Origin: Gemmatimonas sp. | GTDB taxonomy: Bacteria > Gemmatimonadota > Gemmatimonadetes > Gemmatimonadales > Gemmatimonadaceae | Length of the DNA stretch: 64,000 bases | Direction: 5' to 3' | Assembly: GCA_031414535.1 (NCBI GenBank) | Contig: JANNVQ010000014.1 | Span: 64,001-128,000 of the forward strand | In this document: positions 38,477 through 56,251 of the stretch, one piece after another | Numbering within the stretch: position 1 is the first letter of the stretch | How the letters are laid out: every line of letters starts with the position of its first letter | Position numbers and translations under genes: made by a program | The notes under the pieces: generated by a model | What the model was told of the DNA's origin: nothing | Seen by the model: only the letters and a program-made list of their open reading frames with translations | The model's database searches: none

Positions 38477-39583
38477 CTATCGGGACGCCGGCCGTGCCCC
38501 GATCGCCCGACGCCGCGGAATCAGCACCCAATAGTCGAACTCCAACACGACGCTCGGGTCGTACTGCCCTTGGTCAGTCTTGTAAGGAAAGGTGGACGCA
38601 GTCCTATCCTTTGTGGCCACACTTCGTACGCGCAACGCGCCCACATCAGCGCGCCCAGGCAACTCGGCGACCTCAAGAATCTCCGACCAGGCGTAGATGG
38701 TGTCGCCGGCGAAGCTGGGGTTCACGTGCCGTCCACCATTGATGCCCACCACGGTAAAGGCGTTCCCGAGCCCACTGAAGCTCAGGGCACGGGCCAGCGA
38801 AATGAGGTGCCCGCCGTACACAATCCGGCGCCCAAACCGGCCCTCGCGCTCGACGTGCAGATTGAAATGGACCTTGGCCGTGTTTTGAAACAGACGCGCG
38901 GCGCCCATATGATCGGCGTCCTCAATGGTCATCGCGTCCACGTGATCAATGCGTTCACCCACCGCATAATCTTCCCAAGCAAACGCCGAGCCCGCGAGCT
39001 CCGCGTCGTACGCACCATCGGCAATCGCGAATGGCGCGTGCAGGGTCTCGGGTGCCACTTGCTCGGGCAGCACCGGAATCACGTCCAATGGAGCCGGTGA
39101 GGCCGCGTCACGCTTACGCACCATAGCCCAGCGCGTGTACTCGCAGACCATATCGCCGCGCTGGTTCTCACCGCGCGAGCGCACCCAGACCACACCGGTC
39201 TGCCCATCCTTGTTGGCCTTCACGCCCAGCACGGTCGAGGTCGTACGGATGGTATCTCCCGGGTACACCGGGACGCCAAAGCGGCCATCGGCGTAGCCGA
39301 GGTTGGCGATGGCGTTGAGCGAGACATCGGGAACGGTTTTTCCGAACACGATATGAAACACGAGTATCGAGTCGAGTGGAGCGCGCGGGCATCCGACGCT
39401 CGCCGCAAACGGCGACGACGAGTTGACCGCGAAGCGCGAACCAAACAGCGACTGATACACAGCCACATCTCCGTCCGTCACCGTGCGCGGCGTGGCGTGC
39501 ACGATGACCTGCCCCGGCGTGAAATCCTCGAAGAAGTTGCCCGCCTGCATCTTCGTCACGGCCTTGTTCACAGTCTTACTCAC
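38477..39583 (-). CDS. mch: Mesaconyl-C1-CoA hydratase (beta-methylmalyl-CoA dehydratase), double MaoC fold
   Basis: [62 protein letters not shown] overlap with mcl. Confidence 0.92.
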
Positions 39584-40623
39584 AGCTCGTAGGCCGCGGC
39601 GAGGTCCGGATCCTTCTTGGCCACAAGGCGCGCGAGATCCACCATCACCTTGGCCTGTTTCCAAGTCGCGTCATCCTGCATCTTGCCGTCAATCATCGCC
39701 ACGCCAGAGCCATCCGGCATGGCGTCGAGAATGCGCTTGGCAAACTTCACCTCGCTCACATCAGGGCTGAACACGCGCCGAGCGATCGCGATCTGATTGG
39801 GCGCCAGCGACCAGGCACCCGTGCATCCCATAATGAAGGCGTTCCGGAACTGCGATTCGCAGCCGGCCTCGTCCTTGAGGTCCCCGAAAGGCCCATAGAA
39901 GGCCCGCATACCATATGATTGGCAGGCGTCCACCATCCGAGCCACGGTGTAGTGCCAAAGATCTTGCTGCACAAAAGCACGGGCACTGCCATCGGCGTTG
40001 GGGTCGCCCAGCACTCCATAGAAGGGATGCCCACCGCCAACACGCGTGGTCTTCATCCCGCGCGACGCGGCGAGGTCGGCGGGGCCGAGCGAAAGCCCGT
40101 GCATGCGCGGACTCGCCCCACAAATCTGCTCCACGTTCTTCACCCCTTCGGCGGTCTCGAGCAAAGCGTGAATCAAGATAGGCCGCGTGAGCTTGTACTT
40201 GGCCTCAAGCAGCGCGAGCATTTGGTCCACGAAGTGTATGTCCCAGGGTCCTTCAACCTTGGGAATCATCACGACGTCGAGCTTGTGGCCCGCTTGGCCT
40301 ACAATCTGCTCGAGGTCATCGAGGATCCACGGTGAGTTGAGGCAGTTGACGCGCACCCACAGCGCCGTGCCGCCAAAGTCGTGCTCCAGCGCGGCGGCAA
40401 TGAATCCAGCCCGCGCCGCCGCCTTGTCCTCTACCGGAATGGCGTCCTCGAGGTTGCCGCAGAGCACATCACACTGCTTGGCGAGCTCGGGCAGCTTGGC
40501 GCGGATCTTCTCAAGATGCGGCGGAAAGAAGTGAATCATCCGCTCGGGCCGTACCGGCAAACTCCGCAGCGGTGCCGGCGCGCCGATGGCGAGTGGCTTA
40601 TAGAAATTGTTGGGTAGCTTCAC
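39580..40623 (-). CDS. mcl: Malyl-CoA/beta-methylmalyl-CoA/citramalyl-CoA lyase (Chloroflexus-type)
   Basis: [59 protein letters not shown] and [11 protein letters not shown] match the Chloroflexus Mcl as I recall it. Confidence 0.93.
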
Positions 40624-40644
40624 GTAGTGGCTCTCCAGATTGGA

Positions 40645-41868
40645 TCAGGGGGTGGGGCCGGCAACGACTCCATCGTCGTGCAAAATGCCGAGCTCGGCTT
40701 CACTCAGGCCAGCGATGGTCAGCAGAATTTCATCCGTATGCTCGCCGAGCTTGGGCGCGGCAACAGCGTCCGCGACTGGTTCAGCGCTAAAGCGCAGCGG
40801 TGACTTCGGCGCCGGATACTCGCGTTGTCCGTGTGCACCCAGTGTGGTGAACAAGCCAGCGCCGGGCTGGCAGTCGGGATCTTCGTGCAAGGCTTCACTC
40901 AGGCTCCGATACGGCCCCCATGCCACGCGATGGGCCGTGAGCGCGGACGCCACCTCACTGTATGCTCGTAGCGCAAACCACGGCGCCAGCATCTGCGTGA
41001 TCTCTTCGCGCGCATGAAAGCGCTCGCCCTCATCCGCGAGATTTCGGCCCAGCTTGCTTGTGAGCACTTCGACTTCACTGGCCGTGCTCGTGGCCTTCAC
41101 GATGGCGTTCCACTGGCCATCAGTGAGTCCTACAATCATCACGCGCCGTCCATCCGCCGTGAGGAAGTCCTTGCCGTAGGCGCCATACAAATAGTTTCCG
41201 TAGCGCTCGCGGTCCTGGCGATGCAACACCGACTCGGCGATGAAGCCAAGGTTGCCAAGCATCGCCAGCCCAACATCCTTGAGCGCGAGCTCCACCAGCT
41301 GCCCTGCTCCAGTACGCGAGCGCTTCCGTTCAGCGGCGAGCATCGCGATCGCAATTTGGTGTCCAGCAATCGCATCCCAAGCGGGGAACACGTGATTCAC
41401 CGGCGTTGGGTCGTCCACGGGGCCCGTGAAGTCGGGCACGCCAATCTGCGGGTTTACCGTGTAATCGACTTCGCTCGTCCCATCTCGTCGGCCGCTGAGC
41501 ACGACCATGATGAGGTCCTGGCGATGCGCGCGCAGCGATTCGTACGAGAGCCAGCCTTTGGGCGGAAAGTTGGTGGAGAAGATGCCCGCATCCGCGCCCG
41601 GCGCCGTAATCACGCGTGTGAGCAATTCCTGCCCGCGCGGTGAGCGAAGGTCCACCACGATGGAACGCTTCCCCTTGTTCAATCCATCCCAGAAGAGCGA
41701 GCGCGAGCCGTCTGGCGTCAGCGGCCAACGGCGAGCGTCGAGCCCACCACCAATTTGGTCAAACCGAATGACGTCGGCGCCGAGCTGAGCGAGCGTCATG
41801 CCGCCGAGCGGTGCAGCGACGAACGCCGAGCCTTCCACCACCCTCATACCTGCGAGTATGCCAGCCAC
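40645..41868 (-). CDS. mct: Mesaconyl-CoA C1-C4 CoA transferase (family III)
   Basis: RVVEGSAFVAAPLGGMTLAQLGADVIRFD..GGGLD..RWP, VDYTVNP, NHVFPAWD, GNYLYGAYG: Mct signature. Confidence 0.92.
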   Translation of the reverse strand: MAGILAGMRVVEGSAFVAAPLGGMTLAQLGADVIRFDQIGGGLDARRWPLTPDGSRSLFWDGLNKGKRSIVVDLRSPRGQELLTRVITAPGADAGIFSTNFPPKGWLSYESLRAHRQDLIMVVLSGRRDGTSEVDYTVNPQIGVPDFTGPVDDPTPVNHVFPAWDAIAGHQIAIAMLAAERKRSRTGAGQLVELALKDVGLAMLGNLGFIAESVLHRQDRERYGNYLYGAYGKDFLTADGRRVMIVGLTDGQWNAIVKATSTASEVEVLTSKLGRNLADEGERFHAREEITQMLAPWFALRAYSEVASALTAHRVAWGPYRSLSEALHEDPDCQPGAGLFTTLGAHGQREYPAPKSPLRFSAEPVADAVAAPKLGEHTDEILLTIAGLSEAELGILHDDGVVAGPTP

Positions 41869-41870
41869 GT

Positions 41871-43112
41871 TCAGATCACCTCGCGCGTGCGCAGATCAGC
41901 GATTCGCGCTTCGTCGAGGCCGAGCAGATCGCGCAGGACTTCGTCCGTGTGCTCGCCAAGCGTGGGGCCGAGCTGACGAATGCTGCCCGGCGTCTCGCTC
42001 AAGCGCGGGACCACGGAGGGGAGAATCATGCTCTCACCGGTGCGATGGTCATCAATGGCCACAAGGTTGCGCCGCGCGTGGAACTGCCGGTCACTAAAGA
42101 TGTCGGCAATGTTGTTGAGCGGACCGGCCGGCGTGTGAGTGGAGTAGCAGCGCTCCAACACTTCCTCGCGCGTGAGCGATCCACACCAGTCGCGCACGAT
42201 CTCGTTCACCTGCGCGGCGTGTTCGAGGCGTGTACGCTGCTCACCGTACGTGGAGGAAGATGCCAACTCGGGGCGCCCCATCGCATTGGCCAAGCGCTCA
42301 AAGAGATGGTCAGTGGCGCAGGAGATGGCCACCCACTTGCCGTCCTTTGTGGCGAAGTGGCCGTGCGGACACGCGAACTCGTTGTGCGAGCTGCCCATGC
42401 GTTCGCGCACCGTGCCGTACATGGAGTAGGCCGGCGCGAGCTCATCAGTGCAGCGGAATACGGATTCGTACAGGGCCGCATCCACGTACTGTCCCTCTCC
42501 CGTCAGATCGCGGTGCCTGAGTGCAAGCAGGACGCCAATCGCTCCGTAGAGGCCGGTCATATAGTCGCCGAGCGTGGTGGAGCCTGGCGTGACGGGCGTG
42601 CCCTTGGGCATTCCGGCCAGATACGCGATGCCGCCCACGGCATGCGCCACACGCGCGAAGCCAGGACGATCCCTATATGGACCCGTCTGCCCGTATCCTG
42701 TTACACGCAGCATCACGAGCTTGGGATTTACTTGCTTGAGCCGGTCCCATCCGAGCCCCCACTTCTCCATCGTACCCGTGCGGAAGTTTTCGCAAAGCAC
42801 ATCGGTTTGCTTGATGAGCTCCAAGAAGAGCTCCTGCCCTTCTGGATGACGCAGATCAAGCGTCACGGAGCGCTTGTTGCGTGCTTCGCTCACCCAGGTG
42901 AGCGTATCGCCGCGCTGCGATGGCGTACCGAAGCGGCGGAGTCCGTCACCGCCGAGCGGGTGCTCAATCTTGAGCACGTCCGCACCGAACTCTCCGAGCA
43001 CGGTGGCGCAGAAGGGTGCCGCGATGATGGTGGCGATGTCTACCACGCGGATGCCTTCAAGCGGCATCGGCGACGGCACGATGGGCACATCAGGATGCAA
43101 GAATGTGCTCAT
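41871..43112 (-). CDS. smtB: Succinyl-CoA:(S)-malate CoA transferase beta subunit
   Basis: CaiB/BaiF family: [42 protein letters not shown]. Tandem with an smtA-like gene. Confidence 0.85.
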
Positions 43113-43115
43113 GGT

Positions 43116-44345
43116 TCAGATCACTCGCTGTTCGCGGAATTTTGCAATCTCGTTGGCTGCGAGCCCCAGCAACTCGCGCATCACCTGTTCGGTAGAATCT
43201 CCGAGCGTTGGCCCGAGACTGGTGACGCGTCCCGGTGTCTTGGAGAGGCGCGGCACCACGCCGGGAATCGCCAGGTTCTCGACAGGGCCATCGGACATGC
43301 GCACCAGATTCTCGCGGGCGGCAAACTGCTCGTCCTCGAAGATGTCCGCGATGCTGTTCACCTTGCCCACCGGAACTTCCTCACGCAGGCACTTATCGAG
43401 GACTTCCTCACGCGTGAGCGAGGCCACCCATTCAATTACCGTCTTATTGACCTTGTCGCGGTCAGCGAGGCGCTTGCGTTGATCGCCCCAGACTTCGCTC
43501 GAGGAGAGATGCGGCTGCCCCATCGCGACGCTCAAGCGCTCGAACATCTTGTCCGTCGTGCAGGCAATCGCAATCCACTTGCCATCACCGGTGCGGAAGT
43601 GCCCGTGCGGGACGGCGACGAAGCTACCGCTGCCTTCGCGCTCGCGAATTTTGCCGGTCGTTCCGTAGGCCGGTGCAATTTCCTCGAGCACGCGGAACAC
43701 GGCTTCATAGATGCCCACGTCAATCATCTGCCCGCGACCCGTAGCTTCTTGATGACGCAGGGCGATGAGCACACCAATCGCACCGAAGAGGCTCGCGATG
43801 TAATCGCCAAGTGGTACCGTACCCGGAAGCACCGGGGACTCGCCCGGGAAGCCCGAGAGGTAGTTGAGTCCACCAAAGGCCTGCGCGATGTGTGCGAATC
43901 CGCTGCGACGGCGATACGGGCCCGTCTGTCCATAGCCGGACACGCGCAGCATCACGATGCGCGGATTCGTGGCGTGCACGTCGGCCCAGCCGAGCCCCCA
44001 CTCCTCCATGGTGCCAGGACGGAAGTTCTCCACCAGCACATCCGACTTCTGCAGCAGACGCTTGAAGAGCATCACACCATCAGGCTGCCGCAGGTCAATG
44101 GTCACCGACTTGCGGTTGCGCGCCTCGCTCAGCCAACTGAGCGAAGCATCCTCACGCGGAGACTTGGTGCCGAAGTGCCGCATCGGATCGCCCGCGATCG
44201 GATGCTCCACCTTGATCACTTCGGCGCCGAACTCTCCGAGGATTGAAGCGGCGTAGGGGCCGGCGAGGAAATTGCCCACGTCAACGACCCGAACACCATC
44301 GAGTGGACGAGTCGTGAGTGTCGTGGCTGAGTCGTGCGTCGTCAC
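43116..44345 (-). CDS. smtA: Succinyl-CoA:(S)-malate CoA transferase alpha subunit
   Basis: DVGNFLAGPYAASILGEFGAEV, WLSEARNRKSVTIDLRQ, LGDY; resembles Chloroflexus SmtA. Confidence 0.87.
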   Translation of the reverse strand: MTTHDSATTLTTRPLDGVRVVDVGNFLAGPYAASILGEFGAEVIKVEHPIAGDPMRHFGTKSPREDASLSWLSEARNRKSVTIDLRQPDGVMLFKRLLQKSDVLVENFRPGTMEEWGLGWADVHATNPRIVMLRVSGYGQTGPYRRRSGFAHIAQAFGGLNYLSGFPGESPVLPGTVPLGDYIASLFGAIGVLIALRHQEATGRGQMIDVGIYEAVFRVLEEIAPAYGTTGKIREREGSGSFVAVPHGHFRTGDGKWIAIACTTDKMFERLSVAMGQPHLSSSEVWGDQRKRLADRDKVNKTVIEWVASLTREEVLDKCLREEVPVGKVNSIADIFEDEQFAARENLVRMSDGPVENLAIPGVVPRLSKTPGRVTSLGPTLGDSTEQVMRELLGLAANEIAKFREQRVI

Positions 44346-44404
44346 AAAGACCTTGAAAGAGACAGTGAGTCGCGGGTGGCGCAGTCAAACACTAGCTTGC
44401 CCTT

Positions 44405-45295
44405 ATGTCCGACAAATCCCCGATGCCAGAAGTGGACGTTGCGGCATGGATTGGCCGCAGCGAGACCGTCCAAGACGACTGTTCGACGGCGCAAGCCTTG
44501 AGCGTGGCCGCGATGCTGAACCTCAACGCCTCGCAGATTGGCGAAGGCTCCGCCCTTCCCCTGCTCTGGCATTGGTTCTACTTCCTGCCGCGGGCGCCGC
44601 AGGCCAAGCTCTCGGCCGATGGGCATCCCGAGCGCGGTGGATTCCTGCCGCCCATCACCTTGCCGCGGCGCATGTTTGCGGGTGCGCGCGTCACCGTGTA
44701 TCAGTGGCTCACGCTCGGTCGCCCGGCGACGCGCGAAGGTACGATCCTCAACGTGCGGGAGACCAGCGGCAAGAGCGGCAAGCTGACCTTCGTCTCTGTT
44801 GGATACCGATTCCTGCAGGATGGCGTGCTGTGTTTGGAAGAGGAGCAGGACATCGTGTACCGCGAGCCCGGTGCTGCAGTGCCTGCGCCGACTGCCGCCG
44901 AACGTCCAGCGTTGGTAGACGGGGCGTTCAGCGAGGAGTTCACACCAGACTCGCGCCTGCTGTTTCGGTTCAGCGCGCTGACGTTCAACGCGCATCGCAT
45001 TCACTACGACCGTCCCTACGCGATGCAGGAAGAGGGCTACCCCGGCCTCGTCGTGCACGGACCGCTGATTGCACTGCTGCTGGCCGAACTCGCGCAGCAG
45101 CAGTCCCAACATCAGATCGCCAAGTTCAGCTTCAAGGGTATGGCACCGCTGTTCGACATTGGTAGCGTGCGGCTGTCGGGGGTGCGGACAGCCTTGAATG
45201 GCCCCGACGCGCGTGCCTCCGAGCGCATCGGGCTCGCGGCACACGCCGTGGACGGCACGCAGACGATGGCCGCTGAAGCGGTGTTCAGACCGTAA
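44405..45295 (+). CDS. meh: Mesaconyl-C4-CoA hydratase (HTD2/Ich-like hot-dog fold)
   Basis: HWFYF, DGHPERGGFLPP..LPRRMFAG, LFRFSALTFNAHRIHYD..YA..EGYPGLVVHGPL. The specific assignment relies on context. Confidence 0.8.
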   Translation: MSDKSPMPEVDVAAWIGRSETVQDDCSTAQALSVAAMLNLNASQIGEGSALPLLWHWFYFLPRAPQAKLSADGHPERGGFLPPITLPRRMFAGARVTVYQWLTLGRPATREGTILNVRETSGKSGKLTFVSVGYRFLQDGVLCLEEEQDIVYREPGAAVPAPTAAERPALVDGAFSEEFTPDSRLLFRFSALTFNAHRIHYDRPYAMQEEGYPGLVVHGPLIALLLAELAQQQSQHQIAKFSFKGMAPLFDIGSVRLSGVRTALNGPDARASERIGLAAHAVDGTQTMAAEAVFRP

Positions 45296-48200
45296 TCGCA
45301 AGACCGCGATAGATGCGGGAGCGGTAGCGCGAATCCTTCTCCTCGGGAATCGGCGCCGCTGCCAACAGCACGGCCTTGGCAAAGCGCGCCAACTCTTCCG
45401 CCTGCTCCGCGGCATCGCGCGGCTCCTCGCTGCGCATACGCCGCGTAATGTTGATCTGGTTCACCGGCACATTGGTGTAGAGCCGCTCGTTTTCTACGCC
45501 CAGCGTGGCCGTGAGCGCATGCAAGGTGGTCTTCACGAAGTTGGCGATGGCGAACTGCGCCGGCGATCCGCCCACCGGCACGTCCGGCGACACCAGAATC
45601 AATCGCGCACCCTTGTAGAGCGAGACCTTACGCGCCACGCGGAAGTGCTGCGTGAGATTGCCCTCGACCACTTCCGAGAAGCCCGCCGCATCGAGGTGAT
45701 CCTTGCCCGCGATGCCAAACAATGCTTGCGGAATTGGCGTGAACGGCGTGGCAATCACGGCAGCAGGCAACCCGTGCGCGGCGACGGCCGCATCCATGCC
45801 CGACTCGAGTTCGTCACCGACCACACGGACATCCGCTCGCTCAGCGTGAGGCAGGCCAGAGAGTGACTCGCGGCTCTTAGCTGCGGCTTCGGCTGTTCTC
45901 ATGAGCACCACCAGACGCCCAACCTGTGCTTCGCCGAGGAAGGTCTCGGCGGCGGCGGCCATGTGCTCCGTGAGATGCTCGCCGATGATCCACACCGTCT
46001 CGCCTTCCATGAGCGCCACGCGCTCGGGCCGTGCGCGGCCAAACAACTCGCGTTCGGTGATGGTGCGCTCCTGATGCAAGCCACCGCTGGGCTCGAAGGT
46101 CTCCCCAGAAATTGCGCGGTCCGCCATGAAGAACACCGTGGCCAGTGCGACGTCCGTTTCCGTCGGCATCTGCTTCAAGTGCAGCATGCCGAGTACGCCC
46201 TTGGCGATTTTCTCGGCCTCGGCCATCACCTCGGCGGCGTTCAGGAACGGTTCGGCTGGCTCCGGCAGCTTGCTGAGCCAAGCCTCGGCGGACTCCATTG
46301 CGCCCTTTCCAGCAGCACTCACGACGCCGCCGTTGATCAGGCGGTTGAGGAAGCGCCGCGCAATGGCGGGCGTGAAGATGAAGCGGACCGAAGAGAACTG
46401 TGCGTCAGCTGCGCCCGTCCCAACGAGGCGTGACCCCAAGGTCTGGAGTTCCTGTGGGACCCCTTCCGCCTGCAGCGACGGCACGTCATTGCCCTGCATG
46501 GCGGCAAGGCAATCGGCCAAGCTCGCACCAGACTCAAGCGCCTTGAGTGTGGCCGTGTGCACGAGGGTCAGCCGCTTGTTCTCGTGAATCAGTCGCGCGC
46601 GGCGCGCGAAGAGTCCAGCCTTGCCGTCCTTGCCGGCGAGGCGCTGCCCATCCACCGGCCCCGGTGCGATTGCGTTGATCTGCACCTCCGGACCAACGAA
46701 CTTCGCGAGGTTCTCCACGAGCGCGCGCTGGCCCGCCTTGGAGACTGCGTAGTCCGCACGGTTCGGGTAGGGCACGGCAATAAACTTCTCACCGCCAAAG
46801 TACGAACTCACGTTGAGCACGTAGCCCGAGCCCTGCTTCTTCATCAGCGGCACCACCTTCTCGATGAGCGAGTAGTTGCTCTCGAGATTGGTGTTGAGCG
46901 TGTTGCGCCAGTCCGCAACGTCCATGTCCACGACCATCTGCTCAGCGCCGGCGATCCCTGCGTTGTTGATGAGGTAGTCGAGTCGACCGAACTCCTTGAG
47001 CGTTTTCGCCAAGGCCTCACTGAGCTTCGCTTCGTTGTTGGTGTCTACGTTGGCGATGTACTGCACGCGCTCGTGGGCACGGTAGTAGCCGATGTCCTCG
47101 AGTTCGCGCACGATGCTGTCGCGCATACCCTTAAGCTGCTCCTCGCGACGCGCCGTGATCATGACGCGAGCGCCAGCCATCGCGAGCAGGCGTCCGATTT
47201 GGCCACCGATACCCGCCGAGCCGCCGGTGATGAGGGCGACCTTGCCCAAGTGCAGGCCGTGGAGGGCTTCCATCCAACCGAAAGTGGCTTTGCGTGAGCC
47301 CGTGGCGTCCACGATGCTCGAGGGCAGGTAGAGATTCACCTGATTGATGCGGCGCTTGGTGTACATCAAGCGCGCTGCGTGGCTCGCCGCGAAGGGGAGC
47401 CCCTCATCCTCCGCGTTGGACCAACGGATGATTTGGTTGGACCATTCCACGACCTTGCGCTTGTGCATGGCGACTTGCACTTCTGTCTCGTCGCGCCAGA
47501 TGCGCACCAACTCTTCCATTGATGAGCGCAGAATGTCGGCGTAGGCGTTGGCCCCGCCATCGCTGCCATTCGAGAGGAAGATTGTGCGCGGGTACGAGTT
47601 GCGCGGAGCAGCCGTGCGCCAAAAGCGCGTCAGCTCGCGGGCGATCGCGATGGCACCAACGATCTCGCCCGTGATGAACTGATCAACGTCGGTGTCGCTG
47701 GCCTCGGCCAAGGGCGCGAGGAACTTGCCGGGACCATAGGCCGGCATGACGATGGCACCGTGGAGGACGTCCTCGCGGGCGCGCTCTTCATTGAGCACGG
47801 CGGAAAGCGTCTCGGGACGACGACGATCGAACAAGACCGGTGTGATGCGGCGGTCGCGGTCATCATCCTGAAGCGCAGCCTGCGCCGCGTGCACGTTCTC
47901 CTCGCTCCCGAGGCCAAGGATGACGCTCGCACCGCAACCCGCCTGCACGCGTGCCACCGTGAGTGCATCGGCCACTTGATTACCGGCCGCCACGAGCAGC
48001 GTGACGCCTGTGCCATCAACTGTCCGGAGCGTGGGCCGCGCGGTGAAGGTGCTACGCGACTCTTGGCGGACGGCCATGCCGTGCGTGACTTCAAAGTTGT
48101 GTCCGTTGAAGGCGGCAGATTCTTCGGAGCCCAAGAAGACGATGGTGTTGGCGACGTCATCCACGGTGGGGAGACGGCGTCCTGCAACGCCCTTCTCGTC

Positions 48201-49073
48201 TGGGCGAGCGAGGGTCATGAGGCCCGTCATCTCATCGTGCGTGGTGCCAGGCTTCATGTCGCGCAGTCCGTCCATGGCGGCGAACACGTTGCGAATGCGT
48301 TCGCTATCAATGGGGCCAGGGAATACGGTATTCACGCGAATTCCGCGGGGTCCAAGCTGCAGGGCCAGTTGGCGCGAGAAGGCATTGAGCGCTGCCTTCG
48401 GGACTACGTAGGCCACGCGTCCGTAGTACTGCGTGCGCGAGAAGATGGTAGACACCTGGATGATGGTCGCACCAGGCTTGAGATGCGGGGTGACGGCCCG
48501 CACGAGATTCCAAGAGAGCCCGAGCAGATTGCCCGCGGCGTCGCGCGCCGTTTCGGAATCGGCGCTGCCTTCGGTACGCAGCAGTTCGAGTTCGTCGCGC
48601 GTGAGCGGGACGTCCTCGAGAATTTGCTTGGGGCCCGCGGAGCCCGCGTTGTTGACCACGATATCAATGCGACCAAACTGCTGCATCGCCGCGTCGATGC
48701 CCCAACGCACCTGGCCGGGATCGGCGGCATCGAAGGGCAGTACGTGCGCGTTGGCAGCCTTGGCCTTAGTCTGCTTAAGCAGTGCCGTGCGCGTGGCCTC
48801 GAGCTTCGTGCGGTTGCGACCGACGAGGATGACCGTCGCGCCTTCCTCGAGATACCGACGCGAAATGACAACGCCGATGTTGCCCGCCGCACCGGTAACA
48901 AGCGCGACCTTGCCCGCGAGGCGACCGGCGCCGCGTACGGATGTCTTTGCCGATGTCTTTGCCGATGTCTTGGCCGATGTCTTGGCAGAGGCTTTTGCAG
49001 AGGCCTTGCTGGCGGCCGGCTTCGACTTCGCAGACTTTGTTGGCTTCGCTGACTTCTTGATGGTACGCGGCAT
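45285..49073 (-). CDS. mcr: Bifunctional malonyl-CoA reductase (3-hydroxypropionate-forming)
   Basis: 1262 aa tandem SDR: GRLAGKVALVTGAAGNIG, YYGRVAYVVPK; GLHLGKVALITGGSAGIGGQIG, YPNRADYAVSK; ends RIYRGLAITV, as in Chloroflexus-type Mcr. Confidence 0.95.
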   Translation of the reverse strand: MPRTIKKSAKPTKSAKSKPAASKASAKASAKTSAKTSAKTSAKTSVRGAGRLAGKVALVTGAAGNIGVVISRRYLEEGATVILVGRNRTKLEATRTALLKQTKAKAANAHVLPFDAADPGQVRWGIDAAMQQFGRIDIVVNNAGSAGPKQILEDVPLTRDELELLRTEGSADSETARDAAGNLLGLSWNLVRAVTPHLKPGATIIQVSTIFSRTQYYGRVAYVVPKAALNAFSRQLALQLGPRGIRVNTVFPGPIDSERIRNVFAAMDGLRDMKPGTTHDEMTGLMTLARPDEKGVAGRRLPTVDDVANTIVFLGSEESAAFNGHNFEVTHGMAVRQESRSTFTARPTLRTVDGTGVTLLVAAGNQVADALTVARVQAGCGASVILGLGSEENVHAAQAALQDDDRDRRITPVLFDRRRPETLSAVLNEERAREDVLHGAIVMPAYGPGKFLAPLAEASDTDVDQFITGEIVGAIAIARELTRFWRTAAPRNSYPRTIFLSNGSDGGANAYADILRSSMEELVRIWRDETEVQVAMHKRKVVEWSNQIIRWSNAEDEGLPFAASHAARLMYTKRRINQVNLYLPSSIVDATGSRKATFGWMEALHGLHLGKVALITGGSAGIGGQIGRLLAMAGARVMITARREEQLKGMRDSIVRELEDIGYYRAHERVQYIANVDTNNEAKLSEALAKTLKEFGRLDYLINNAGIAGAEQMVVDMDVADWRNTLNTNLESNYSLIEKVVPLMKKQGSGYVLNVSSYFGGEKFIAVPYPNRADYAVSKAGQRALVENLAKFVGPEVQINAIAPGPVDGQRLAGKDGKAGLFARRARLIHENKRLTLVHTATLKALESGASLADCLAAMQGNDVPSLQAEGVPQELQTLGSRLVGTGAADAQFSSVRFIFTPAIARRFLNRLINGGVVSAAGKGAMESAEAWLSKLPEPAEPFLNAAEVMAEAEKIAKGVLGMLHLKQMPTETDVALATVFFMADRAISGETFEPSGGLHQERTITERELFGRARPERVALMEGETVWIIGEHLTEHMAAAAETFLGEAQVGRLVVLMRTAEAAAKSRESLSGLPHAERADVRVVGDELESGMDAAVAAHGLPAAVIATPFTPIPQALFGIAGKDHLDAAGFSEVVEGNLTQHFRVARKVSLYKGARLILVSPDVPVGGSPAQFAIANFVKTTLHALTATLGVENERLYTNVPVNQINITRRMRSEEPRDAAEQAEELARFAKAVLLAAAPIPEEKDSRYRSRIYRGLAITV
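48940..49011 (-). repeat. ~6 x 12-bp in-frame tandem repeat (GATGTCTTTGCC on +) encoding AKTS/AKAS in the Mcr N-terminus
   Basis: Units start at 48940, 48952, 48964, 48976, 48988 and 49000, with progressive degeneration. Confidence 0.9.
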
Positions 49074-49106
49074 CGTGAATCCTGCTCGGGTGAGAGAGGC
49101 GAGAGC

Positions 49107-52100
49107 TCAGGCGTCGCTGCGGCGGCGCGCGGCCCATTCCTGATACAGCTCGTCGCGGCTTCGGAGGCCTGGCCGCGGGAGCGCGTGGTTCACCACATAC
49201 GTGGCGCCGGCGTGGGTGTTATCCCACATCGCTTGGTGCGCCTTAGGTAGATCTTCCCAAGGCACGACAGTTGGTTCGGTCACTTCGAGCTGGCCCGCAC
49301 CGATCATCTCGTTCATCCGCACCACCTCGTAGGCGTTGCAGAGGTGCGTGCCGGCAATAGTCGCCGTCGGCATCAGGATGCGACGCTGCCGCATCCAGAC
49401 TTGTGGGGCGTAGAAGGTGAAGCGGCGGCCCGCGAGATCCTCGCAGTACACCACGCGTCCCGTGAACGGCTTCACCAGCGATGTGCTCGCGGCGAGTGCA
49501 TCGTGGCCAGCGCGTTCGATGATGAGATCGGGATAGCCGCGCGGGTTATCCGCCGTACGCAGATACTTGCCGACCGCGCTGCCGAAAGGCTTCATCGTGC
49601 GCTCTTGGTAATCGCGCACGGCATCCTTGAAGGCCGCGGTCTCTTTCTTGGCGTCGGGCATCGGCGGCAAGGCGTCTGGCCAATCGAAGCCATCGCCCTC
49701 ACGGCGGCGAATTTCCTCGAGCGATACCACGCCCTTCACCGCATCGCCAAATCCCAGCGACTGCACGAACTCGCGTTGTGCGTCGGTGGCGGTTGCCACC
49801 ACGAGCCGGCCGCGCAACGCTCGCACAGCCTCAATGGCTTCAAGGCCAACAGGATCGAGCAGCGCGCCGTCGCCTACTCCATAGTAGAGCAACACAGCTT
49901 CGCCGGCACGCAGGCGCGCGCGGCGCAGCATGGCATCAGGTGTCGATGCGCCACGCTTACCCACGAACGAGAACCAATACCCGCTCGTCGCACCGTAAAA
50001 AGTGAGTGTGCCTCCCTCAGCGAGCATCTGGAAGCTGCGTGGGAAAGCTTCCTGCCCGGCGTGCGAGACTGCGTAATCAGCGAGTCCACCACCGTTCTGA
50101 TCGCGAAAGGCCTGCAAGAGCGGCTCACCGTCGCGCTCCCACTTGGCGATGCCCGCGGCGTCTGACGGCACGGGCGTGAACACCTTGGCCCAGCGCGCGT
50201 CCTTACGATCAATCGCCCCGGCCGCGCCCTGCGCCTTCACGAAGGCAGCACGTTCGGCGCTCGATACGAGGCCAACCGCTGAAAGTCCGTTGCGGGCCGC
50301 GCTCTTGAGCGCCTCAAGGCCGGTACCCGTCGCCGCACCTTCCACGAAGATGCGCTTACCGCTCTCCACCTGAAGCGTGGTGAACAGCGCACGCACGACT
50401 GTGCCCAAGTTGAGCACATAGGAGCCAGCGGCCTCCAGCGTCAGATCAGCCGGCAGATGATGCAACTGCGGCCCCTGCGTGAGCAAAAACTGTTGATGCG
50501 AGCCGGTGTCCGTCTCGTAGCCTTGAATGGAGAAGCCCGCGTACATTGGGTCGCGACCAGCGAGTGGAGACAGCAACTCACTCTGGCCGGAGTAAATGGT
50601 GACGAGGTCCCCAACCTTGAGACGGCCTTCCTTCTTGAGTTCGCCGCCCATCGCAGCGACGAGTCCTACGCCACCAGAGCCCGTGACCTGGTAGTCGAGG
50701 TCGTGATTCTCAAACGGCGACACCGGAATGCCCGTGATGGCCCAGATGTCATTGAAGTTCACTTCCGACGCGAGCACGTACACGAGCGCTTCGTTGGGCC
50801 CAGGTGTGGGCACAGGCGCGACGATCTCACGCTCTTTTTCCCGCGGCAGGCCGTGGTCCGGCGCACCGGTGCGCGCGTCGCGCACCACAGCGTGACCAAA
50901 CTGCCAACGAGGCACCGGCGTGAGTCCCGGGAAGAATGGCGCGCCCACGGGGAGCAAGTCACCACTGGAAATCAGCGCCTCACGCACGGCACCGTGTGGC
51001 GTGGTATCGCGATGCGTGGGAAGAGCTGCGCTGCGTTTGTCTTGGAACGCTTGGATGCCCGCCTTGCCGCCGTCGGGATCAACCACGGCTTCGGCAAAGA
51101 GTCGCGCTTCGCGCTCGAGACCCGCATCAATGCCCCGCGTCCACCCGGTGCGCACGGCATCAACGATACGGGCAGCTACTGCCCCGCGACCCACCACATC
51201 TGCCTGCGCGAGCAAGCGTCGCACTTCGGGATCATGCAGCGCCGCATTCAAGTCATCACCACCCGGACCCTGCCAAGCACGCGCCGCCGCACGACGCGCC
51301 GCAAAGGTCCTGGCAACTAAGCCGCTACCCTTTTCATCACGCACATACTCAGCGGCCAAGCGCACCGCGAGCGTGAGCACGTCTTCTGAGTCAGAGGCCA
51401 GCGCGTGCACGAGGCCGTCGGCGCTCATCGCGTCGGCGTCCTGCGTGCGCCCACCGATGATGATCTCTAGCGCTCGTACGAGCGGATGCGCGTGCTTCGC
51501 AGTCTCAAGCAAACGCGGAAGTCGCTGCGTGCCGCCATAGCCGGGCAACAAATTGAGTCGCACCTCTGGCTGACCGAAGCTCGCCGAGGACTCTGCCACA
51601 CGCACGTGACAGGCCATGGCGAACTCCATGCCTCCGCCGAGCGCCACACCATTAATCGCGGCGATGGCCGGCTTGTTCATCGCTTCAATCTTGCGAAACG
51701 CGAGCTGTGCGTTGTTAGGCAGAGGAAGCGCTTCTTCAATCGTGCGCACTTCCTCGAGAAGCTGACGGATATCCGCACCTGCCACGAAACTCGCCGTACC
51801 CTGCCCCGTGAAGATCACAGCCTTCACATCCTCGCGACGCGCGACGTGGTCCACCACGATGTTGAGTTCGTCGAGCGCACGCTCGTTGAGCGCGTTCACC
51901 GGCGGATTATTAATGGTCACGACCGCAAGACGCGCCGTGTCGGACAGCGGATGATACAGAATGCGGAAGTAGCGGTAGTCCTCAAACAGGCGCTGCTCGT
52001 CGGCCACCTTCTGCCGCTCGAGCCAGTCCGCCACCACTCGGCGCAATTCCGGAATGCACTCAGGATTGCGCAGCGTTGAGGTATCGCCTACGTCTTCACC

Positions 52101-54605
52101 ATCCACGATAGCGCGCACCATCCGACGCATATACTTGCCGCTGCGCGTCTCCGGAAACTGGGAGACTTCAATGAAGTCTTCCGGTACCGCCGTGGGGCCC
52201 TTCTCTTGGCGCACGGTCTCAATGAGGCGACGGCGATCATCGCTCGTGAGCTTGCGGCCCGGCGCGGGCTTCACGAACGCCAGCGGCGTGAGCCCCTTCT
52301 GCGCATGCGGGGCGCCGACGACAATCACATTGCCCACGGGTGAATCGGGATTCACCTGCTTGTCGCGCAGGATAGCGCCTTCAATCTCTTCTGTGCCGAG
52401 CCGGTGGCCAGACACGTTGATTACGTCGTCTGAACGGCCGTGCAGCGAGAAGCCGCCGTCTGCGTACTTTACCGCAAAGTCGCCCTGCGTGTAGGCAAAG
52501 CGGCCCTGCCAGCGCGTCCAGTAGGTGCTGCGGTAGCGATCAAAATCACCGCGCCAGCTCTTGGACACCGCGTGCCCATCAACCTTAAAGCCTTCGGCGT
52601 CGCCCCAGATGGTGCGCGCCAAATACGGATACGGCGCCGCAATGACAATCTCGCCCTTCTCGCCGATCTCGGCGGGACGTGGCTTGAGACGGCCCTCGGC
52701 ATCAGGCTCGCTATCCGGCAACCACACATCGCCCTGCACCCACGGCAGAGGATACGTGTGGGCATCGGCGCGCAGCGGGAAATCGGCGTTGCCAAACAAA
52801 TGCGTCCACACGATGCCGCCGTGCTCGGTGGCCCAATACGAATTGATGTACCAGGGCGTCACGAGCTCCATGCCAAACTGCTGCACGCTCGGCGACGTGG
52901 GCTCGGCGCAGAAGGTCGCCACACGCAGCGAGTCGAGCGCGTATTGCTTGACGTCCGCCACGTTCTGCGGATCCGTCATCACCGTCTTCAAGAAGGTCAC
53001 GCCCGCCTTGAAGATCTTCACACCGTAGCGCTCAATCATGCTCGCGAAGCGGCCGGCGCTCGGGAATACCGGCGCGCCTTCGCCAATCACCGAGGTCACG
53101 CGCGAGGACAGCGCAGCGCAGATCATATAGCTCTGGCCCGTGATCCAACCGGGATCGGCCACCACGTACATCACATCGCCCGGCTGCGCATCGAAGGCAA
53201 CCTTCATCGTATGTGTGAGGCCGGCCACGTAGCCGCCGTGGACGTGCACGACGCCCTTGGGCTTGCCGGTGGAGCCGGAGGTATAGATGAAGAAGAGCGG
53301 AAACTCCGCGTCCACCACAGCCGGCGCCGACGAGGCCCAGACGGCTTCCACCAACGCACGGTCATCGAGCGCGAGCAGGTCTGCCTCGCTCGCAACATTC
53401 GCGCCGGCGCGCCGTGCCTGCTCCACAACGTGCGCGAGCGCCTTCGCGGTAAGTTCGTGCGCCCACTGGTCACGCTCGGCGCGCCAAACAATATCCGTCT
53501 GTGCCGTATGACGCACCACAATCACCGCACGCACCCGGGCCGGCGTGGCAACGAGCGCTGAGGCGATAGCGGTGCGAATGCGCGAGGCTTCGGCGGAGCT
53601 GAGGGCGGTGAAGGCCTCAAGTGCGAGACCCACGCCGCGCATCACATCCGAGCGCTCGAGCGTGATTTCACCGCGTACAGCGCTGGCCGCACCATCGAGA
53701 ATGGCGCTGGCCAAAGCGGTATCCAGCTTCAAGGACTCAACAGCGGCGCGCACAGTAGCCGCGGCAACCTCGGCCGGTACGTAATTGTCGAGCGCTGGGT
53801 CCGTATACACTTCCTTGAACGGCACCACCTGCGCGTTGCGATATCCACCATCGGCCGTGATGACCACGGACGCGCCCGCATTGTGAATGCGGTCGGAGAG
53901 CGTCTTGTCGGAGAAGCCGCCAAACACCGGCGTGTACACTACACCGAGTCGCTTGCAGGCCTCAGTCCAGAACACTTGCTCCGGAATGTTTGGCATGTTG
54001 ATGGCCACGCGGTCCCCGCGCTCGACGCCAAGATTGCGCAGCGCGATGGCGCACTTGGCCGTCTCGAGCAGGAGGCGCTTACGGCTGACCGCGAAGGACA
54101 CCACCGGGCCGCCGCGGCCACCATCGAGCGACTGGTCCCATCTGTCTCCTTCGAAGAGCAGCGCGGCTTCGCTGCCGTGGCCGGCCAAAACGTGGCGATC
54201 TACTTCATTAAAGCAGGCGTTGGTGAGACCGCCGGAAAACCAGCGGTAAAACGGGGCTTCGCTGTCGTCGAAGGCGCGATGCCAAGGAGTCCAGTCGGCC
54301 GCGAGCGAGGCTTCAACTTGAGCGCCAGTGCGGGCGTCGTAGCCGGCCCAACGGGAGCTCGTATCGTCCCAAGAGATCCAGGCACCGTGCATGCCCACAT
54401 CTGGTGCAAACCAATGGATTTCGCGGCTGGCGATGGCACCGTGATAGGCGCCTGGATCGGCGAGCACTTGAGCCCGCTGCGCGTCCCATTCGGCACGGCT
54501 ACGGATTGGGTTCACCAGGGCCAACGGCGGGGTGATGTCTGGCGCCGTGCCCGCAGCGTCCGCTGGTGCGGAACGAGAATTTCCCGTGCTAGTGCGCATC
54601 TGCAC
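49107..54605 (-). CDS. pcs: Trifunctional propionyl-CoA synthase (3-HP-CoA ligase + dehydratase + acrylyl-CoA reductase)
   Basis: 1832 aa. ACS domain: YTSGSTGKPKG, SYWATEHGG, PETRSGKYMRR. Crotonase: FVAGADI, ALGGGME, FGQPE. Reductase: EVNFNDIW, GAATGTG, QVWMRQRRI. Confidence 0.96.
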   Translation of the reverse strand: MQMRTSTGNSRSAPADAAGTAPDITPPLALVNPIRSRAEWDAQRAQVLADPGAYHGAIASREIHWFAPDVGMHGAWISWDDTSSRWAGYDARTGAQVEASLAADWTPWHRAFDDSEAPFYRWFSGGLTNACFNEVDRHVLAGHGSEAALLFEGDRWDQSLDGGRGGPVVSFAVSRKRLLLETAKCAIALRNLGVERGDRVAINMPNIPEQVFWTEACKRLGVVYTPVFGGFSDKTLSDRIHNAGASVVITADGGYRNAQVVPFKEVYTDPALDNYVPAEVAAATVRAAVESLKLDTALASAILDGAASAVRGEITLERSDVMRGVGLALEAFTALSSAEASRIRTAIASALVATPARVRAVIVVRHTAQTDIVWRAERDQWAHELTAKALAHVVEQARRAGANVASEADLLALDDRALVEAVWASSAPAVVDAEFPLFFIYTSGSTGKPKGVVHVHGGYVAGLTHTMKVAFDAQPGDVMYVVADPGWITGQSYMICAALSSRVTSVIGEGAPVFPSAGRFASMIERYGVKIFKAGVTFLKTVMTDPQNVADVKQYALDSLRVATFCAEPTSPSVQQFGMELVTPWYINSYWATEHGGIVWTHLFGNADFPLRADAHTYPLPWVQGDVWLPDSEPDAEGRLKPRPAEIGEKGEIVIAAPYPYLARTIWGDAEGFKVDGHAVSKSWRGDFDRYRSTYWTRWQGRFAYTQGDFAVKYADGGFSLHGRSDDVINVSGHRLGTEEIEGAILRDKQVNPDSPVGNVIVVGAPHAQKGLTPLAFVKPAPGRKLTSDDRRRLIETVRQEKGPTAVPEDFIEVSQFPETRSGKYMRRMVRAIVDGEDVGDTSTLRNPECIPELRRVVADWLERQKVADEQRLFEDYRYFRILYHPLSDTARLAVVTINNPPVNALNERALDELNIVVDHVARREDVKAVIFTGQGTASFVAGADIRQLLEEVRTIEEALPLPNNAQLAFRKIEAMNKPAIAAINGVALGGGMEFAMACHVRVAESSASFGQPEVRLNLLPGYGGTQRLPRLLETAKHAHPLVRALEIIIGGRTQDADAMSADGLVHALASDSEDVLTLAVRLAAEYVRDEKGSGLVARTFAARRAAARAWQGPGGDDLNAALHDPEVRRLLAQADVVGRGAVAARIVDAVRTGWTRGIDAGLEREARLFAEAVVDPDGGKAGIQAFQDKRSAALPTHRDTTPHGAVREALISSGDLLPVGAPFFPGLTPVPRWQFGHAVVRDARTGAPDHGLPREKEREIVAPVPTPGPNEALVYVLASEVNFNDIWAITGIPVSPFENHDLDYQVTGSGGVGLVAAMGGELKKEGRLKVGDLVTIYSGQSELLSPLAGRDPMYAGFSIQGYETDTGSHQQFLLTQGPQLHHLPADLTLEAAGSYVLNLGTVVRALFTTLQVESGKRIFVEGAATGTGLEALKSAARNGLSAVGLVSSAERAAFVKAQGAAGAIDRKDARWAKVFTPVPSDAAGIAKWERDGEPLLQAFRDQNGGGLADYAVSHAGQEAFPRSFQMLAEGGTLTFYGATSGYWFSFVGKRGASTPDAMLRRARLRAGEAVLLYYGVGDGALLDPVGLEAIEAVRALRGRLVVATATDAQREFVQSLGFGDAVKGVVSLEEIRRREGDGFDWPDALPPMPDAKKETAAFKDAVRDYQERTMKPFGSAVGKYLRTADNPRGYPDLIIERAGHDALAASTSLVKPFTGRVVYCEDLAGRRFTFYAPQVWMRQRRILMPTATIAGTHLCNAYEVVRMNEMIGAGQLEVTEPTVVPWEDLPKAHQAMWDNTHAGATYVVNHALPRPGLRSRDELYQEWAARRRSDA

Positions 54606-54805: not shown

Positions 54806-56194
54806 ATGCGCTCCTTACTCCGCCGAGTTCTCGCGGCCGCTCTTATCAGCCCCCTCGTTCTCTCAGCTCAAGAACCCAGTCGCGCCGGCGGACCGCCTGC
54901 CGGGGTAGCTGCCCAGCGTCCTGCCGGGCCCGATTCCTCGACGCTGCAGTCGCAGGCCATCCGGGTCTTCCTCGACTGTCAGGGCCGAGCCCGTGGCTGC
55001 GACCGCGACTTTCTCGTCACGGAAATCAACTTCGTGAACTGGATGCGCGACCGCTTCGACGCCGACGTGCAAATTCTGGCCCAGGCCCTCACGAACGGCG
55101 GTGGCGGGATTGAGTACACGATCACCTTCATCGGTCGGAATCGCTTTGAGGGGATGACGGACACGCTCAAGCTGAACACGCTGCCGAACGACGCTGACGA
55201 TCGCATTCGCCGCGAGCTCGCGCGCGTCTTCAAGCTTGGGCTCACGCGCTATGTGGCCCGCTCGCCGATCGCCTCGCGTTTGCAGGTGGCCTACACCGCG
55301 CCCTTTGGTGGGCAGCGCGGTCAGGTGGCGGCATCAAATCTGCAGGACCGGTGGAACCTCTGGACCTACACCACGAACCTCAACACCTTCGTGCGCGCCG
55401 AGGAGAGGCAGCGGGTGGTAACCGGGTCGCTGGCGTTCTCGGCAAATCGCTCCACTGCCGAATGGAAGCTCAACTTCTCCATTAGCGGCAACATTGACGA
55501 GCGGAAGTTCAAGATTCCGGCGAGCACCACGCGCCCCGCGTTCACGGTCACCAACGAGCAGCGCACGTACAACCTCAACTCGCTGATGGTGCGCTCGCTC
55601 TCGGATCACTGGTCGGCCGGCCTCAAGTTGGGCGCAGGCTATTCAGACTTTCTCAATCAGGATGCGGCAATCCGGGCGCAGCCAGCCGTCGAGTACAATG
55701 TGTTCCCCTGGACGGAGCAGACGCGGCGCCAGTTTACCATTTTGTACAACATCGGCCCCAACTTCTACGACTACCAGCGCGAAACCGTGTTTGGCGAGAC
55801 CTCGGAAGTCCGCTTCTCTCAGCAGCTGACGACGTCGTACGTGGCGCGCCAGCAGTGGGGTACGCTCAACCTCTCGCTGGACTGGCTGAACTACCTGCAC
55901 GATTTCAACCGTCACGCGCTGACCTTCACGACCAACGCCGACCTGCGCTTGGGCCGCGGTTTTTCGCTCAATATCAACGGCTCGGCCGCTCGCGTGCGCG
56001 ACCAAATCTACCTGCCAGCCGCCGGCAACACCGAAGAGGAGATTCTCCTCAGCCGTCAGGCGCTTCAGACCGGCTTTCGCATCGAAACGAGAATCGGCGT
56101 GCGCTACACGTTCGGCTCGATCTACAACACTATCGTAAACCAGCGTTTCAGCTCGCTGGGCTCAAGCGGCGGTCGCTTCCAGTTCTTCTTCTAG
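54806..56194 (+). CDS. Putative outer-membrane beta-barrel protein
   Basis: Signal peptide from ATG 54806, VFLDC..CD N-terminal domain, amphipathic strands, GSIYNTIVNQRF, terminal Phe. Confidence 0.7.
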   Translation: MRSLLRRVLAAALISPLVLSAQEPSRAGGPPAGVAAQRPAGPDSSTLQSQAIRVFLDCQGRARGCDRDFLVTEINFVNWMRDRFDADVQILAQALTNGGGGIEYTITFIGRNRFEGMTDTLKLNTLPNDADDRIRRELARVFKLGLTRYVARSPIASRLQVAYTAPFGGQRGQVAASNLQDRWNLWTYTTNLNTFVRAEERQRVVTGSLAFSANRSTAEWKLNFSISGNIDERKFKIPASTTRPAFTVTNEQRTYNLNSLMVRSLSDHWSAGLKLGAGYSDFLNQDAAIRAQPAVEYNVFPWTEQTRRQFTILYNIGPNFYDYQRETVFGETSEVRFSQQLTTSYVARQQWGTLNLSLDWLNYLHDFNRHALTFTTNADLRLGRGFSLNINGSAARVRDQIYLPAAGNTEEEILLSRQALQTGFRIETRIGVRYTFGSIYNTIVNQRFSSLGSSGGRFQFFF

Positions 56195-56210
56195 AAGTAC
56201 CAACAGTGAA

Positions 56211-56251
56211 AAAGACGGTCCGCCACGATTGCTTCGTGGCGGACCGTCTTT
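56211..56251. terminator. Bidirectional intrinsic terminator
   Basis: AAAGACGGTCCGCCACGA-ttgct-TCGTGGCGGACCGTCTTT: perfect 18-bp stem with A/T tails between convergent genes. Confidence 0.9.

Follow-up and report, generated by a model that had tools for sequence, protein, structure and literature searches.

A contiguous 3-hydroxypropionate bi-cycle gene cluster, apparently of two sources, in a phototrophic member of the Gemmatimonadaceae

The locus described here lies in a 64,000-nucleotide stretch (the window) of contig JANNVQ010000014.1, positions 64,001 to 128,000, from the Gemmatimonas sp. assembly GCA_031414535.1, whose source habitat is labelled freshwater sediment. Window positions 38477-54605 are filled by pcs, mcr, meh, smtA, smtB, mct, mcl and mch, and all eight open reading frames (ORFs) are free of internal stops (Table 1). 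Together they are predicted to encode every pathway-specific enzyme of the 3-hydroxypropionate bi-cycle: a bifunctional Mcr, a trifunctional Pcs, Mcl, Mch and Mct of the Chloroflexus type, and orthologues of SmtAB and Meh. Only meh is on the plus strand, the seven remaining genes being on the minus strand. The run smtA-smtB-mct-mcl-mch has gaps of a few bases between genes, and a codon-model gene call places the likely start of mch at GTG 39583, giving a 4-nt overlap with the mcl stop. Divergent meh and smtA are separated by 59 nt, while meh and mcr converge and overlap by 11 nt; this meh/mcr joint is the seam between a pcs-mcr half and a glyoxylate-module half. The cluster comprises three transcription units, not one.

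Gene identities given in the initial annotation hold for all eight genes on structure matches and on identity and order relative to Chloroflexus islandicus. Pcs matches PDB 6EQO, which we take to be the enzyme of Erythrobacter sp. NAP1, over its full length (2519 bits) and in the same domain order; the reductase domain aligns end to end, with NFNDIW, GYET and GTHLCN kept. These motif residues presumably distinguish carboxylating from non-carboxylating variants, and a naturally carboxylating Pcs was rejected, the motifs being identical to those of 6EQO. The closest Pcs homologue in the family (84% identity) belongs to genus g46. Mcr has full-length PDB matches to 8HI4 (1174 bits) and 8HJW (1126 bits). 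Its triads T209-Y222-K226 and S757-Y775-K779 align to T165-Y178-K182 and S731-Y749-K753 of the Roseiflexus castenholzii MCR (8HI4), and Y216, R219, Y769, R772 and R825 align to Y172, R175, Y743, R746 and R799, residues reported as essential in that enzyme (PMC10470521). Catalytic triads, substrate-binding residues and domain order are thus all retained relative to Roseiflexus, whereas the host protein adds a low-complexity N-terminal extension of ~46 aa rich in Lys/Ala/Ser/Thr. The DNA encoding this region (window 48940-49073) contains a 12-nt tandem repeat. A second Lys/Ala/Thr-rich low-complexity extension is found at the N-terminus of GlgB (window 8515-8750), where it weakly matches histone H1-like models.

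Mct aligns over its full length with 7XKG and 8APQ (E about 1e-170), including the WD motif (D165); it scores 609 bits (E 3e-183) against TIGR04253, whose cut-off of 725 is reached by 0 of 18 family matches. Mcl matches 6KIN and 4L7Z at 634-636 bits (E about 1e-190), with other malyl-CoA lyases, 4L9Y and 5UGR, at only 197 and 183 bits, and Mch matches 4E3E (E 9e-161) and 8HGN (E 2.5e-135). The remaining three proteins, for which there is no curated model or close structure, are putatively assigned by identity and synteny with C. islandicus. Meh is 57% identical to the C. islandicus gene product in the same position (L321), matched no Pfam or NCBIfam model and has an itaconyl-CoA hydratase (E 9e-62) as its sole PDB match. 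SmtA is 72% identical to the product of the C. islandicus gene adjoining meh and 84% to that of G217, and the structure search returned no close solved relative (best E 6e-56). SmtB shares 77% identity with C. islandicus, 75-80% with Chloroflexota records and up to 88% with Gemmatimonadota.

Table 1. Genes of the cluster and its flanks (window positions)
Feature	Position	Strand	Predicted product or content
pcs	49107-54605	-	trifunctional propionyl-CoA synthase (ligase, dehydratase, reductase), 1832 aa
mcr	45285-49073	-	bifunctional malonyl-CoA reductase, 1262 aa
meh	44405-45295	+	mesaconyl-C4-CoA hydratase, 296 aa
smtA	43116-44345	-	succinyl-CoA:(S)-malate CoA transferase subunit A; CoA_transf_3
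smtB	41871-43112	-	succinyl-CoA:(S)-malate CoA transferase subunit B; CoA_transf_3
mct	40645-41868	-	mesaconyl-CoA C1-C4 CoA transferase
mcl	39580-40623	-	malyl-CoA/beta-methylmalyl-CoA/citramalyl-CoA lyase
mch	38477-39583 (approximate)	-	beta-methylmalyl-CoA dehydratase (mesaconyl-C1-CoA hydratase); PF19315
left flank	8515-38317		glycogen genes and maltodextrin SusC/SusD locus with glucose phosphotransferase system (PTS); outside pathway
right flank	54806-58022		secreted/outer-membrane ORF (+), flotillin (-); outside pathway

The assembly comprises 3.70 Mb in 58 contigs and is 98.4% complete and 1.9% contaminated. It contains no 16S gene, and the host was therefore placed with RpoB. The ten best RpoB matches among 80 loci are all Gemmatimonadota (58-78% identity). 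Within the Gemmatimonadaceae, the host RpoB is 86-93% identical to those of seven genomes of genus g1 and is nested inside g1 in a quick maximum-likelihood tree, in agreement with the earlier inference of a non-Chloroflexota host.

That the contig is chimeric or mis-binned, or the genes decaying, is suggested by a lone carrier among 55 genus members, a two-source phylogeny and a gene order found nowhere else among the loci compared; moreover, none of the listed public contigs crosses the whole stretch, and the listed pieces from run X1, which may be the source sample, leave gaps at 42094-42171 and 55574-55872. However, X1 contigs show 0 differences at a depth of 11-15 along the whole cluster, the seam and both outer joints included: one (44989-48969) crosses the meh/mcr seam, a 29-kb piece runs from the left flank into mcl and another from pcs into the right flank. 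Run X2, from the same study, has identical pieces of both halves at a depth of 5-6. Eleven genes of the left flank match the same-genus genome G253 (53-84% identity) and the flotillin is 83-86% identical to those of G253 and G051, also of g1. Codon usage of the cluster falls at percentiles 25-68 and its tetranucleotide distance at percentile 38 of 208 windows. Even depth, same-genus flanks and ordinary composition argue that the contig is not chimeric, and intact ORFs and Mcr catalytic residues speak against a relic, so that an artefact or relic is highly improbable. Run X3, from another study, contains a relative with ~92% identity over parts of susC, mcl-mct, smtB, mcr and pcs, on contigs that do not bridge the halves; of the 40 listed differences to a relative in this run, the best supported of 914, 39 are synonymous.

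The order of the glyoxylate module, meh<>smtA-smtB-mct-mcl-mch, is identical in the host and in Chloroflexota loci. The position of pcs-mcr is not: in C. aurantiacus, as the initial annotation noted, mcr and pcs (Caur_2614 and Caur_0613) lie apart from the module (Caur_0173-0180; PMC3150298). The arrangement found here, with pcs-mcr converging on meh, was absent from all 61 mcr loci and all 49 meh loci that had 1.5 kb or more of flank. The loci compared were the best 71 and the best 80 of a larger number. Sequence of 1 kb or more beyond mch was present in 51 loci, of which 10 show a one-cluster form with a different gene order; among the 51, mch runs on into pcs in 9 of 14 from Pseudomonadota, 1 of 20 from Gemmatimonadota and 0 of 12 from Chloroflexota. 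The Burkholderiales single cluster, meh<>smtAB-mct-mcl-mch-pcs-(mcr) (for example L288, L291, L293, L304), and the Gemmatimonadetes locus L317 resemble the host in keeping all eight genes contiguous in ~16 kb, but there pcs-mcr follows mch on the same strand, whereas in the host it lies on the other side, converging on meh; mcr is visible in five loci of this type, the remainder ending within pcs. A third order, with mct adjoining mcr, occurs in three Burkholderiales/Rhodocyclaceae loci. Of the 17 other mct-bearing genomes of the family, 16 have mct and mcr on different contigs and one has them 694 kb apart. The glyoxylate module is also present, complete or near-complete and in the same order, in Planctomycetota, Bdellovibrionota, Myxococcota and Woeseiaceae (L312, L314, L315, L322, L323, L324, L325). 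Five Gemmatimonadota loci (L295, L300, L307, L316, L328) have smtA-smtB-mcl without adjacent mct, mch or meh; L316 has a broken mcl, and a split mct is seen in L250 and L303.

The cluster is apparently a mosaic of two sources, assembled in the host lineage, to judge from its phylogenies. Mcr is sister to genus g46 (support 100) and the concatenated Mct-Mcl-Mch is nested in genus g53 (support 98-100); matched trees group the other genera alike for both halves. The larger Mcr tree left out 25 Pseudomonadota loci for thinning, and both larger trees were built without partial sequences. Approximately unbiased (AU) tests on quick LG+G4 trees of 12 and 11 rows rejected a grouping of Mcr with g53 (p 3.7e-62) and one of the module with g46 (p 9e-4), although these p-values are optimistic because the groups were named after the larger trees had been seen. 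Pcs of the host and g46 are 84% identical, exceeding their RpoB identity of 77%, whereas in all remaining between-genus pairs for which the two values are available Pcs identity does not exceed 73% and is lower than that of RpoB; pcs-mcr was therefore probably exchanged between the host lineage and g46. The transfer may have run either way, and an older pcs-mcr could have been retained in g1 and handed on from there. No SmtB orthologue was found in five g46/g58 genomes tested (best full-length match 36-40%; completeness of 90% or more in three of them), and the g53-type module would thus supply a step missing in the pcs-mcr partner lineage. Given its typical codon usage and a protein identity of 76-84% to the nearest relatives, the cluster does not seem to have been assembled very recently. 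A horizontal origin, as proposed initially, is thus backed by the phylogenies of Mcr and of the Mcl-containing module, which place the two halves with different genera, and by the lone occurrence in g1. In an unrooted FastTree, Mcr of the host and g46 groups with that of Steroidobacteraceae and Burkholderiales (support 100), apart from most other Gemmatimonadaceae, which suggests exchange across phyla.

The window has no tRNA gene, terminal repeats or mobility genes, and a genomic island or mobile element was rejected on the absence of tRNA, flanking repeats or atypical composition. Flotillin is found in two and SusC in one of five same-genus genomes, not adjacent, and the two flanks are ~150 kb apart in G253, so that no empty insertion site can be defined. 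The description of the locus as a portable module needs amending, given halves of different source and ends without tRNA or repeats.

The carboxylases and general enzymes that were not seen within the window are encoded elsewhere in the genome. The genes accA, accB, accC and accD exceed NCBIfam cut-offs. A PccB-like carboxyltransferase (PF01039, E 7.6e-199) adjoins a biotin carboxylase and carrier on contig C41, where no model specific for propionyl-CoA carboxylase (PCC) passed, and the methylmalonyl-CoA steps are represented by two mutase N-terminal subunits, one B12-binding subunit, MeaB and an epimerase; both the mutase and the PCC-like set, on which the pathway depends, are thus present. 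The genome further encodes sdhCAB and a fumarase of class I; two motif matches to class II fumarase were rejected because they score higher as aspartate ammonia-lyases. Acetyl-CoA synthetase is above its cut-off and a glcDEF-like operon below its own, and a beta-carbonic anhydrase gene adjoins a SulP transporter gene. Neither isocitrate lyase nor malate synthase of the glyoxylate shunt was found in this near-complete genome. A tblastn search with the Pcs reductase domain returned Pcs and one 25% match, and motif scans for Ccr were blank, no family-profile search having been made; the genome thus appears to lack the Ccr that defines the ethylmalonyl-CoA pathway. For the Calvin cycle there is no carboxylating RuBisCO, the single PF00016 match in the genome being below all NCBIfam cut-offs. 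This match is a RuBisCO-like protein of 408 aa, with an OiaX-type best match, encoded ~10 kb right of the window (C14:137870-139096, L347).

Photosynthesis genes above cut-offs are pufLMC, puhABC, bchXYZ, bchLB, bchHID and acsF, corresponding to a type II reaction centre, and an alternative-complex-III-like operon, cbb3 oxidase, a NuoF motif and PntAB are also encoded. No NiFe hydrogenase was found in the genome, nor any SoxB above cut-off (best 102 bits against 550). A type III sulfide:quinone oxidoreductase (SQR; NF049943, 552 against 525 bits) keeps both aligned cysteines and is encoded with TusE and DsrE2 at C29:208988-211104 (L350), and at C2:39260-43548 (L349) TsdA is followed by an above-cut-off SoxC-type sulfite dehydrogenase, a cytochrome c, two sulfur-transport proteins and an ArsR-like regulator.

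Distribution was assessed in an even sample of 250 Gemmatimonadaceae genomes, in which G034 (flagged unpublished) is counted in every denominator. At least 22 carry mcr, a floor taken from a stricter first look, and these carriers fall in five to eight genera and are not independent; mct is present in 17, all among the mcr carriers. The phototrophy marker pufM is found in 17 of the 22 mcr-bearing genomes and 15 of the 228 others. Isocitrate lyase occurs in none of the 17 mct-bearing genomes but in 85 of the 233 others (84/232 without G034). SQR of the host type is present in 6/22 mcr-bearing and 19/228 other genomes and hydrogenase-family (NiFe) matches in 10/22, so that no inorganic donor accompanies the pathway across the group; SoxB above cut-off is absent from all 23 genomes compared. 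Within g1, the host is the only carrier of mcr or mcl among 55 species (26 at least 90% complete): mcr or a host-type mcl occurs in 0 of the other 54, and pufM in 22 of them. The pathway was therefore either acquired or retained by a single lineage within a genus that was already phototrophic.

These data make it probable that the cluster serves light-powered mixotrophic co-assimilation of small organic acids and bicarbonate, replacing the glyoxylate shunt. In such an aerobic anoxygenic phototroph, light would yield ATP through the type II reaction centre and alternative complex III. Acetyl-CoA would be carboxylated by acetyl-CoA carboxylase and converted via 3-hydroxypropionate (Mcr) to propionyl-CoA (Pcs), which would in turn be carboxylated by the PCC-like enzyme and isomerised to succinyl-CoA, a net C4 compound from acetate and two bicarbonates. 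Glyoxylate, released from malyl-CoA (Smt, Mcl) or formed from glycolate (GlcDEF), would combine with propionyl-CoA to give pyruvate and acetyl-CoA via Mcl, Mch, Mct and Meh. NADPH would come mostly from oxidation of organic substrates with transhydrogenase, perhaps topped up by sulfide. C2-C3 acids and bicarbonate would thus be turned into C3/C4 precursors without carbon loss, in place of the absent shunt. The complete remaining steps, phototrophy genes, entry routes for acetate and glycolate, absence of the shunt, family-wide distribution of isocitrate lyase and pufM relative to the pathway genes, lack of a shared donor and sugar-uptake flank all make mixotrophy the likely mode, and bi-cycle enzymes are cited as co-assimilating acetate, propionate, 3-hydroxypropionate and glycolate (in PMC9802188). 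Several points weigh against it. Organic co-assimilation strictly needs neither Smt nor the entire second cycle, and the lineage appears to have acquired precisely the SmtAB-containing module needed to close the autocatalytic loop, which is what autotrophy would demand; the host also has the type III SQR with TusE and DsrE2, TsdA and the SoxC-type sulfite dehydrogenase. Propionyl-CoA is an assumed substrate of the PCC-like carboxylase. C. aurantiacus is described as having the bi-cycle plus a glyoxylate shunt (PMC3150298), and six other g1 genomes of the family sample lack isocitrate lyase and the bi-cycle alike, so the pathway is not required in g1.

Facultative photolithoautotrophy, by contrast, would pass electrons from sulfide through SQR to quinones; a light-driven proton motive force would push them on to NADH at complex I and to NADPH at PntAB, and the complete bi-cycle would make pyruvate from three bicarbonates, matching the bi-cycle stoichiometry of three inorganic carbons per pyruvate (PMC3150298). 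In its favour are the complete bi-cycle gene set, an SQR above cut-off with both cysteines, TsdA, sulfite dehydrogenase and a dioxygenase-rhodanese fusion beside photosynthesis genes, a NuoF motif and PntAB, in a genome labelled as from freshwater sediment. C. aggregans is reported to be photoautotrophic on sulfide with a type II SQR once ascribed to detoxification (PMC6759344), and with SQR, TsdA and sulfite dehydrogenase present a sulfide-driven autotrophy is therefore conceivable here. It is nevertheless unlikely. NiFe hydrogenase and SoxB were not found in the genome, the only RuBisCO-like protein is below every cut-off, and AcsF indicates aerobic phototrophy. Of the 25 other genomes with this SQR type, 19 have no mcr, and 16 of the 22 with mcr have no SQR of this type. 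Obligate photoheterotrophy is ascribed to freshwater Gemmatimonadota (bioRxiv 10.64898/2026.09.02.748891), and physiological autotrophy in the phylum is described as never shown (PMC11316326). The autotrophy that the initial annotation took the locus to suggest, as an alternative to mixotrophy, is unproven; no electron-donor system is common to mcr-bearing relatives. Its strongest form, in which the pcs-mcr of a Smt-less relative and the SmtAB module of another genus rebuilt a closed autocatalytic bi-cycle in a photoheterotrophic lineage that can use its type II reaction centre and SQR for photoautotrophic growth on sulfide, is distinctly unlikely; if true, the phylum would have its first demonstrated autotroph, and a bi-cycle would for the first time be known to work outside Chloroflexota. 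It is also unlikely that the halves are largely separate in use, with a minor net gain of CO2, Pcs-Mcr serving to consume NADPH or to channel 3-hydroxypropionate, acrylate and propionate, and meh-smt-mct-mcl-mch handling glyoxylate or C5 dicarboxylates (mesaconate, itaconate, citramalate). Three transcription units, the separation of the halves throughout the 17 other family genomes with mct, the retention of mcr in five g46/g58 genomes that show no SmtB orthologue, the Gemmatimonadota loci with smtAB-mcl but no mct and the itaconyl-CoA hydratase match of Meh are consistent with it. However, mcr is also present in 17/17 mct-bearing genomes, and the halves were joined at least twice in different orders, which suggests a joint function.

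The bi-cycle as such is not new outside Chloroflexota, the novelty raised by the initial annotation: Garritano et al. (2022) described the full bi-cycle gene set in a pair of metagenome-assembled genomes (MAGs) of Gemmatimonadaceae, and in Burkholderiales MAGs (PMC9802188), and single clusters recur in Burkholderiales. Those Gemmatimonadaceae MAGs share with the host the family, the complete set and the order of the glyoxylate module, and autotrophy was likewise proposed, not shown; the available portion of that paper describes an operon for the glyoxylate genes only and mentions no pcs-mcr-module cluster, two-source origin or isocitrate lyase exclusion. A 2026 preprint repeats the finding for freshwater Gemmatimonadota, calls the role unconfirmed and carbon fixation by non-Chloroflexota bi-cycle gene sets open, and reports no enrichment for photoautotrophy markers in those genomes, a test that differs from the pufM association above (bioRxiv 10.64898/2026.09.02.748891). 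A marine survey reports no complete pathway in its MAGs (PMC11316326). The new elements are the two-source assembly, the gene order, the mutual exclusion with isocitrate lyase and the lone occurrence in the genus; literature coverage left out most subscription journals, and within it no report was found of a two-source or single-cluster bi-cycle in Gemmatimonadota, of the host gene order or of the isocitrate lyase exclusion.

Like Chloroflexus, the host has the eight enzymes, a type II reaction centre, alternative complex III and an SQR, but its pcs and mcr are adjacent and abut the module, it lacks a glyoxylate shunt and NiFe hydrogenase, its SQR is of type III and not type II, and it belongs to the Gemmatimonadota and is known here from genes alone. 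It offers a clean test case for carbon fixation by bi-cycle gene sets outside Chloroflexota: a near-complete genome with eight intact genes in 16 kb, phototrophy, a single candidate donor route (sulfur) and no glyoxylate shunt, carboxylating RuBisCO or hydrogenase. The mosaic would represent a carbon-fixation pathway assembled from modules between genera, and mcr is found in 17/32 (roughly half) of the pufM-bearing family genomes, so light-powered bicarbonate co-fixation may be common in freshwater. A compact cluster from a presumably non-thermophilic lineage, to go by the habitat label, could also serve reconstruction of the pathway in a laboratory host.

Promoter and terminator scans were at or below shuffle levels. 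One TGT-N12-ACA site, which we take to be a PpsR motif, lies ~160 nt upstream of pcs (window 54763); light regulation through it was rejected as chance because 3 of 53 relatives have a site upstream of pcs (a 54th, L073, being left out) against 100 of 2700 random windows, and 0 of 66 upstream of smtA. In gammaproteobacterial loci L040, L054 and L059, TGTC-N10-GACA sites 36-54 nt upstream of pcs resemble the bch promoters of the host and hint at photosynthesis-linked pcs-mcr control there, at frequencies overall not above background.

In the flanks, the glucose PTS consists of a fused EIIA-HPr-EI and an EIICB, a pair absent from the otherwise matching G253 block, and the right-hand secreted/outer-membrane ORF, without a Pfam or NCBIfam match, has two paralogues in the host genome. 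An ORF of 2668 aa without annotation lies 2-10 kb left of the window (C14:54018-62024). On C49 the photosynthesis genes form two blocks ~50 kb apart (L082-L086), with puhA as two adjacent ORFs and, between the blocks, toxin-antitoxin pairs, a DNA methyltransferase, an IS256 transposase and other unrelated genes. Adjoining bchID-puhE (C49:35637-38160, L083) are an ArsR regulator, a metallo-beta-lactamase-rhodanese fusion and a probable TauE-type membrane protein, so labelled from its sequence appearance, and a cluster recognised by a nosZ motif lies at C31:29208-35033.

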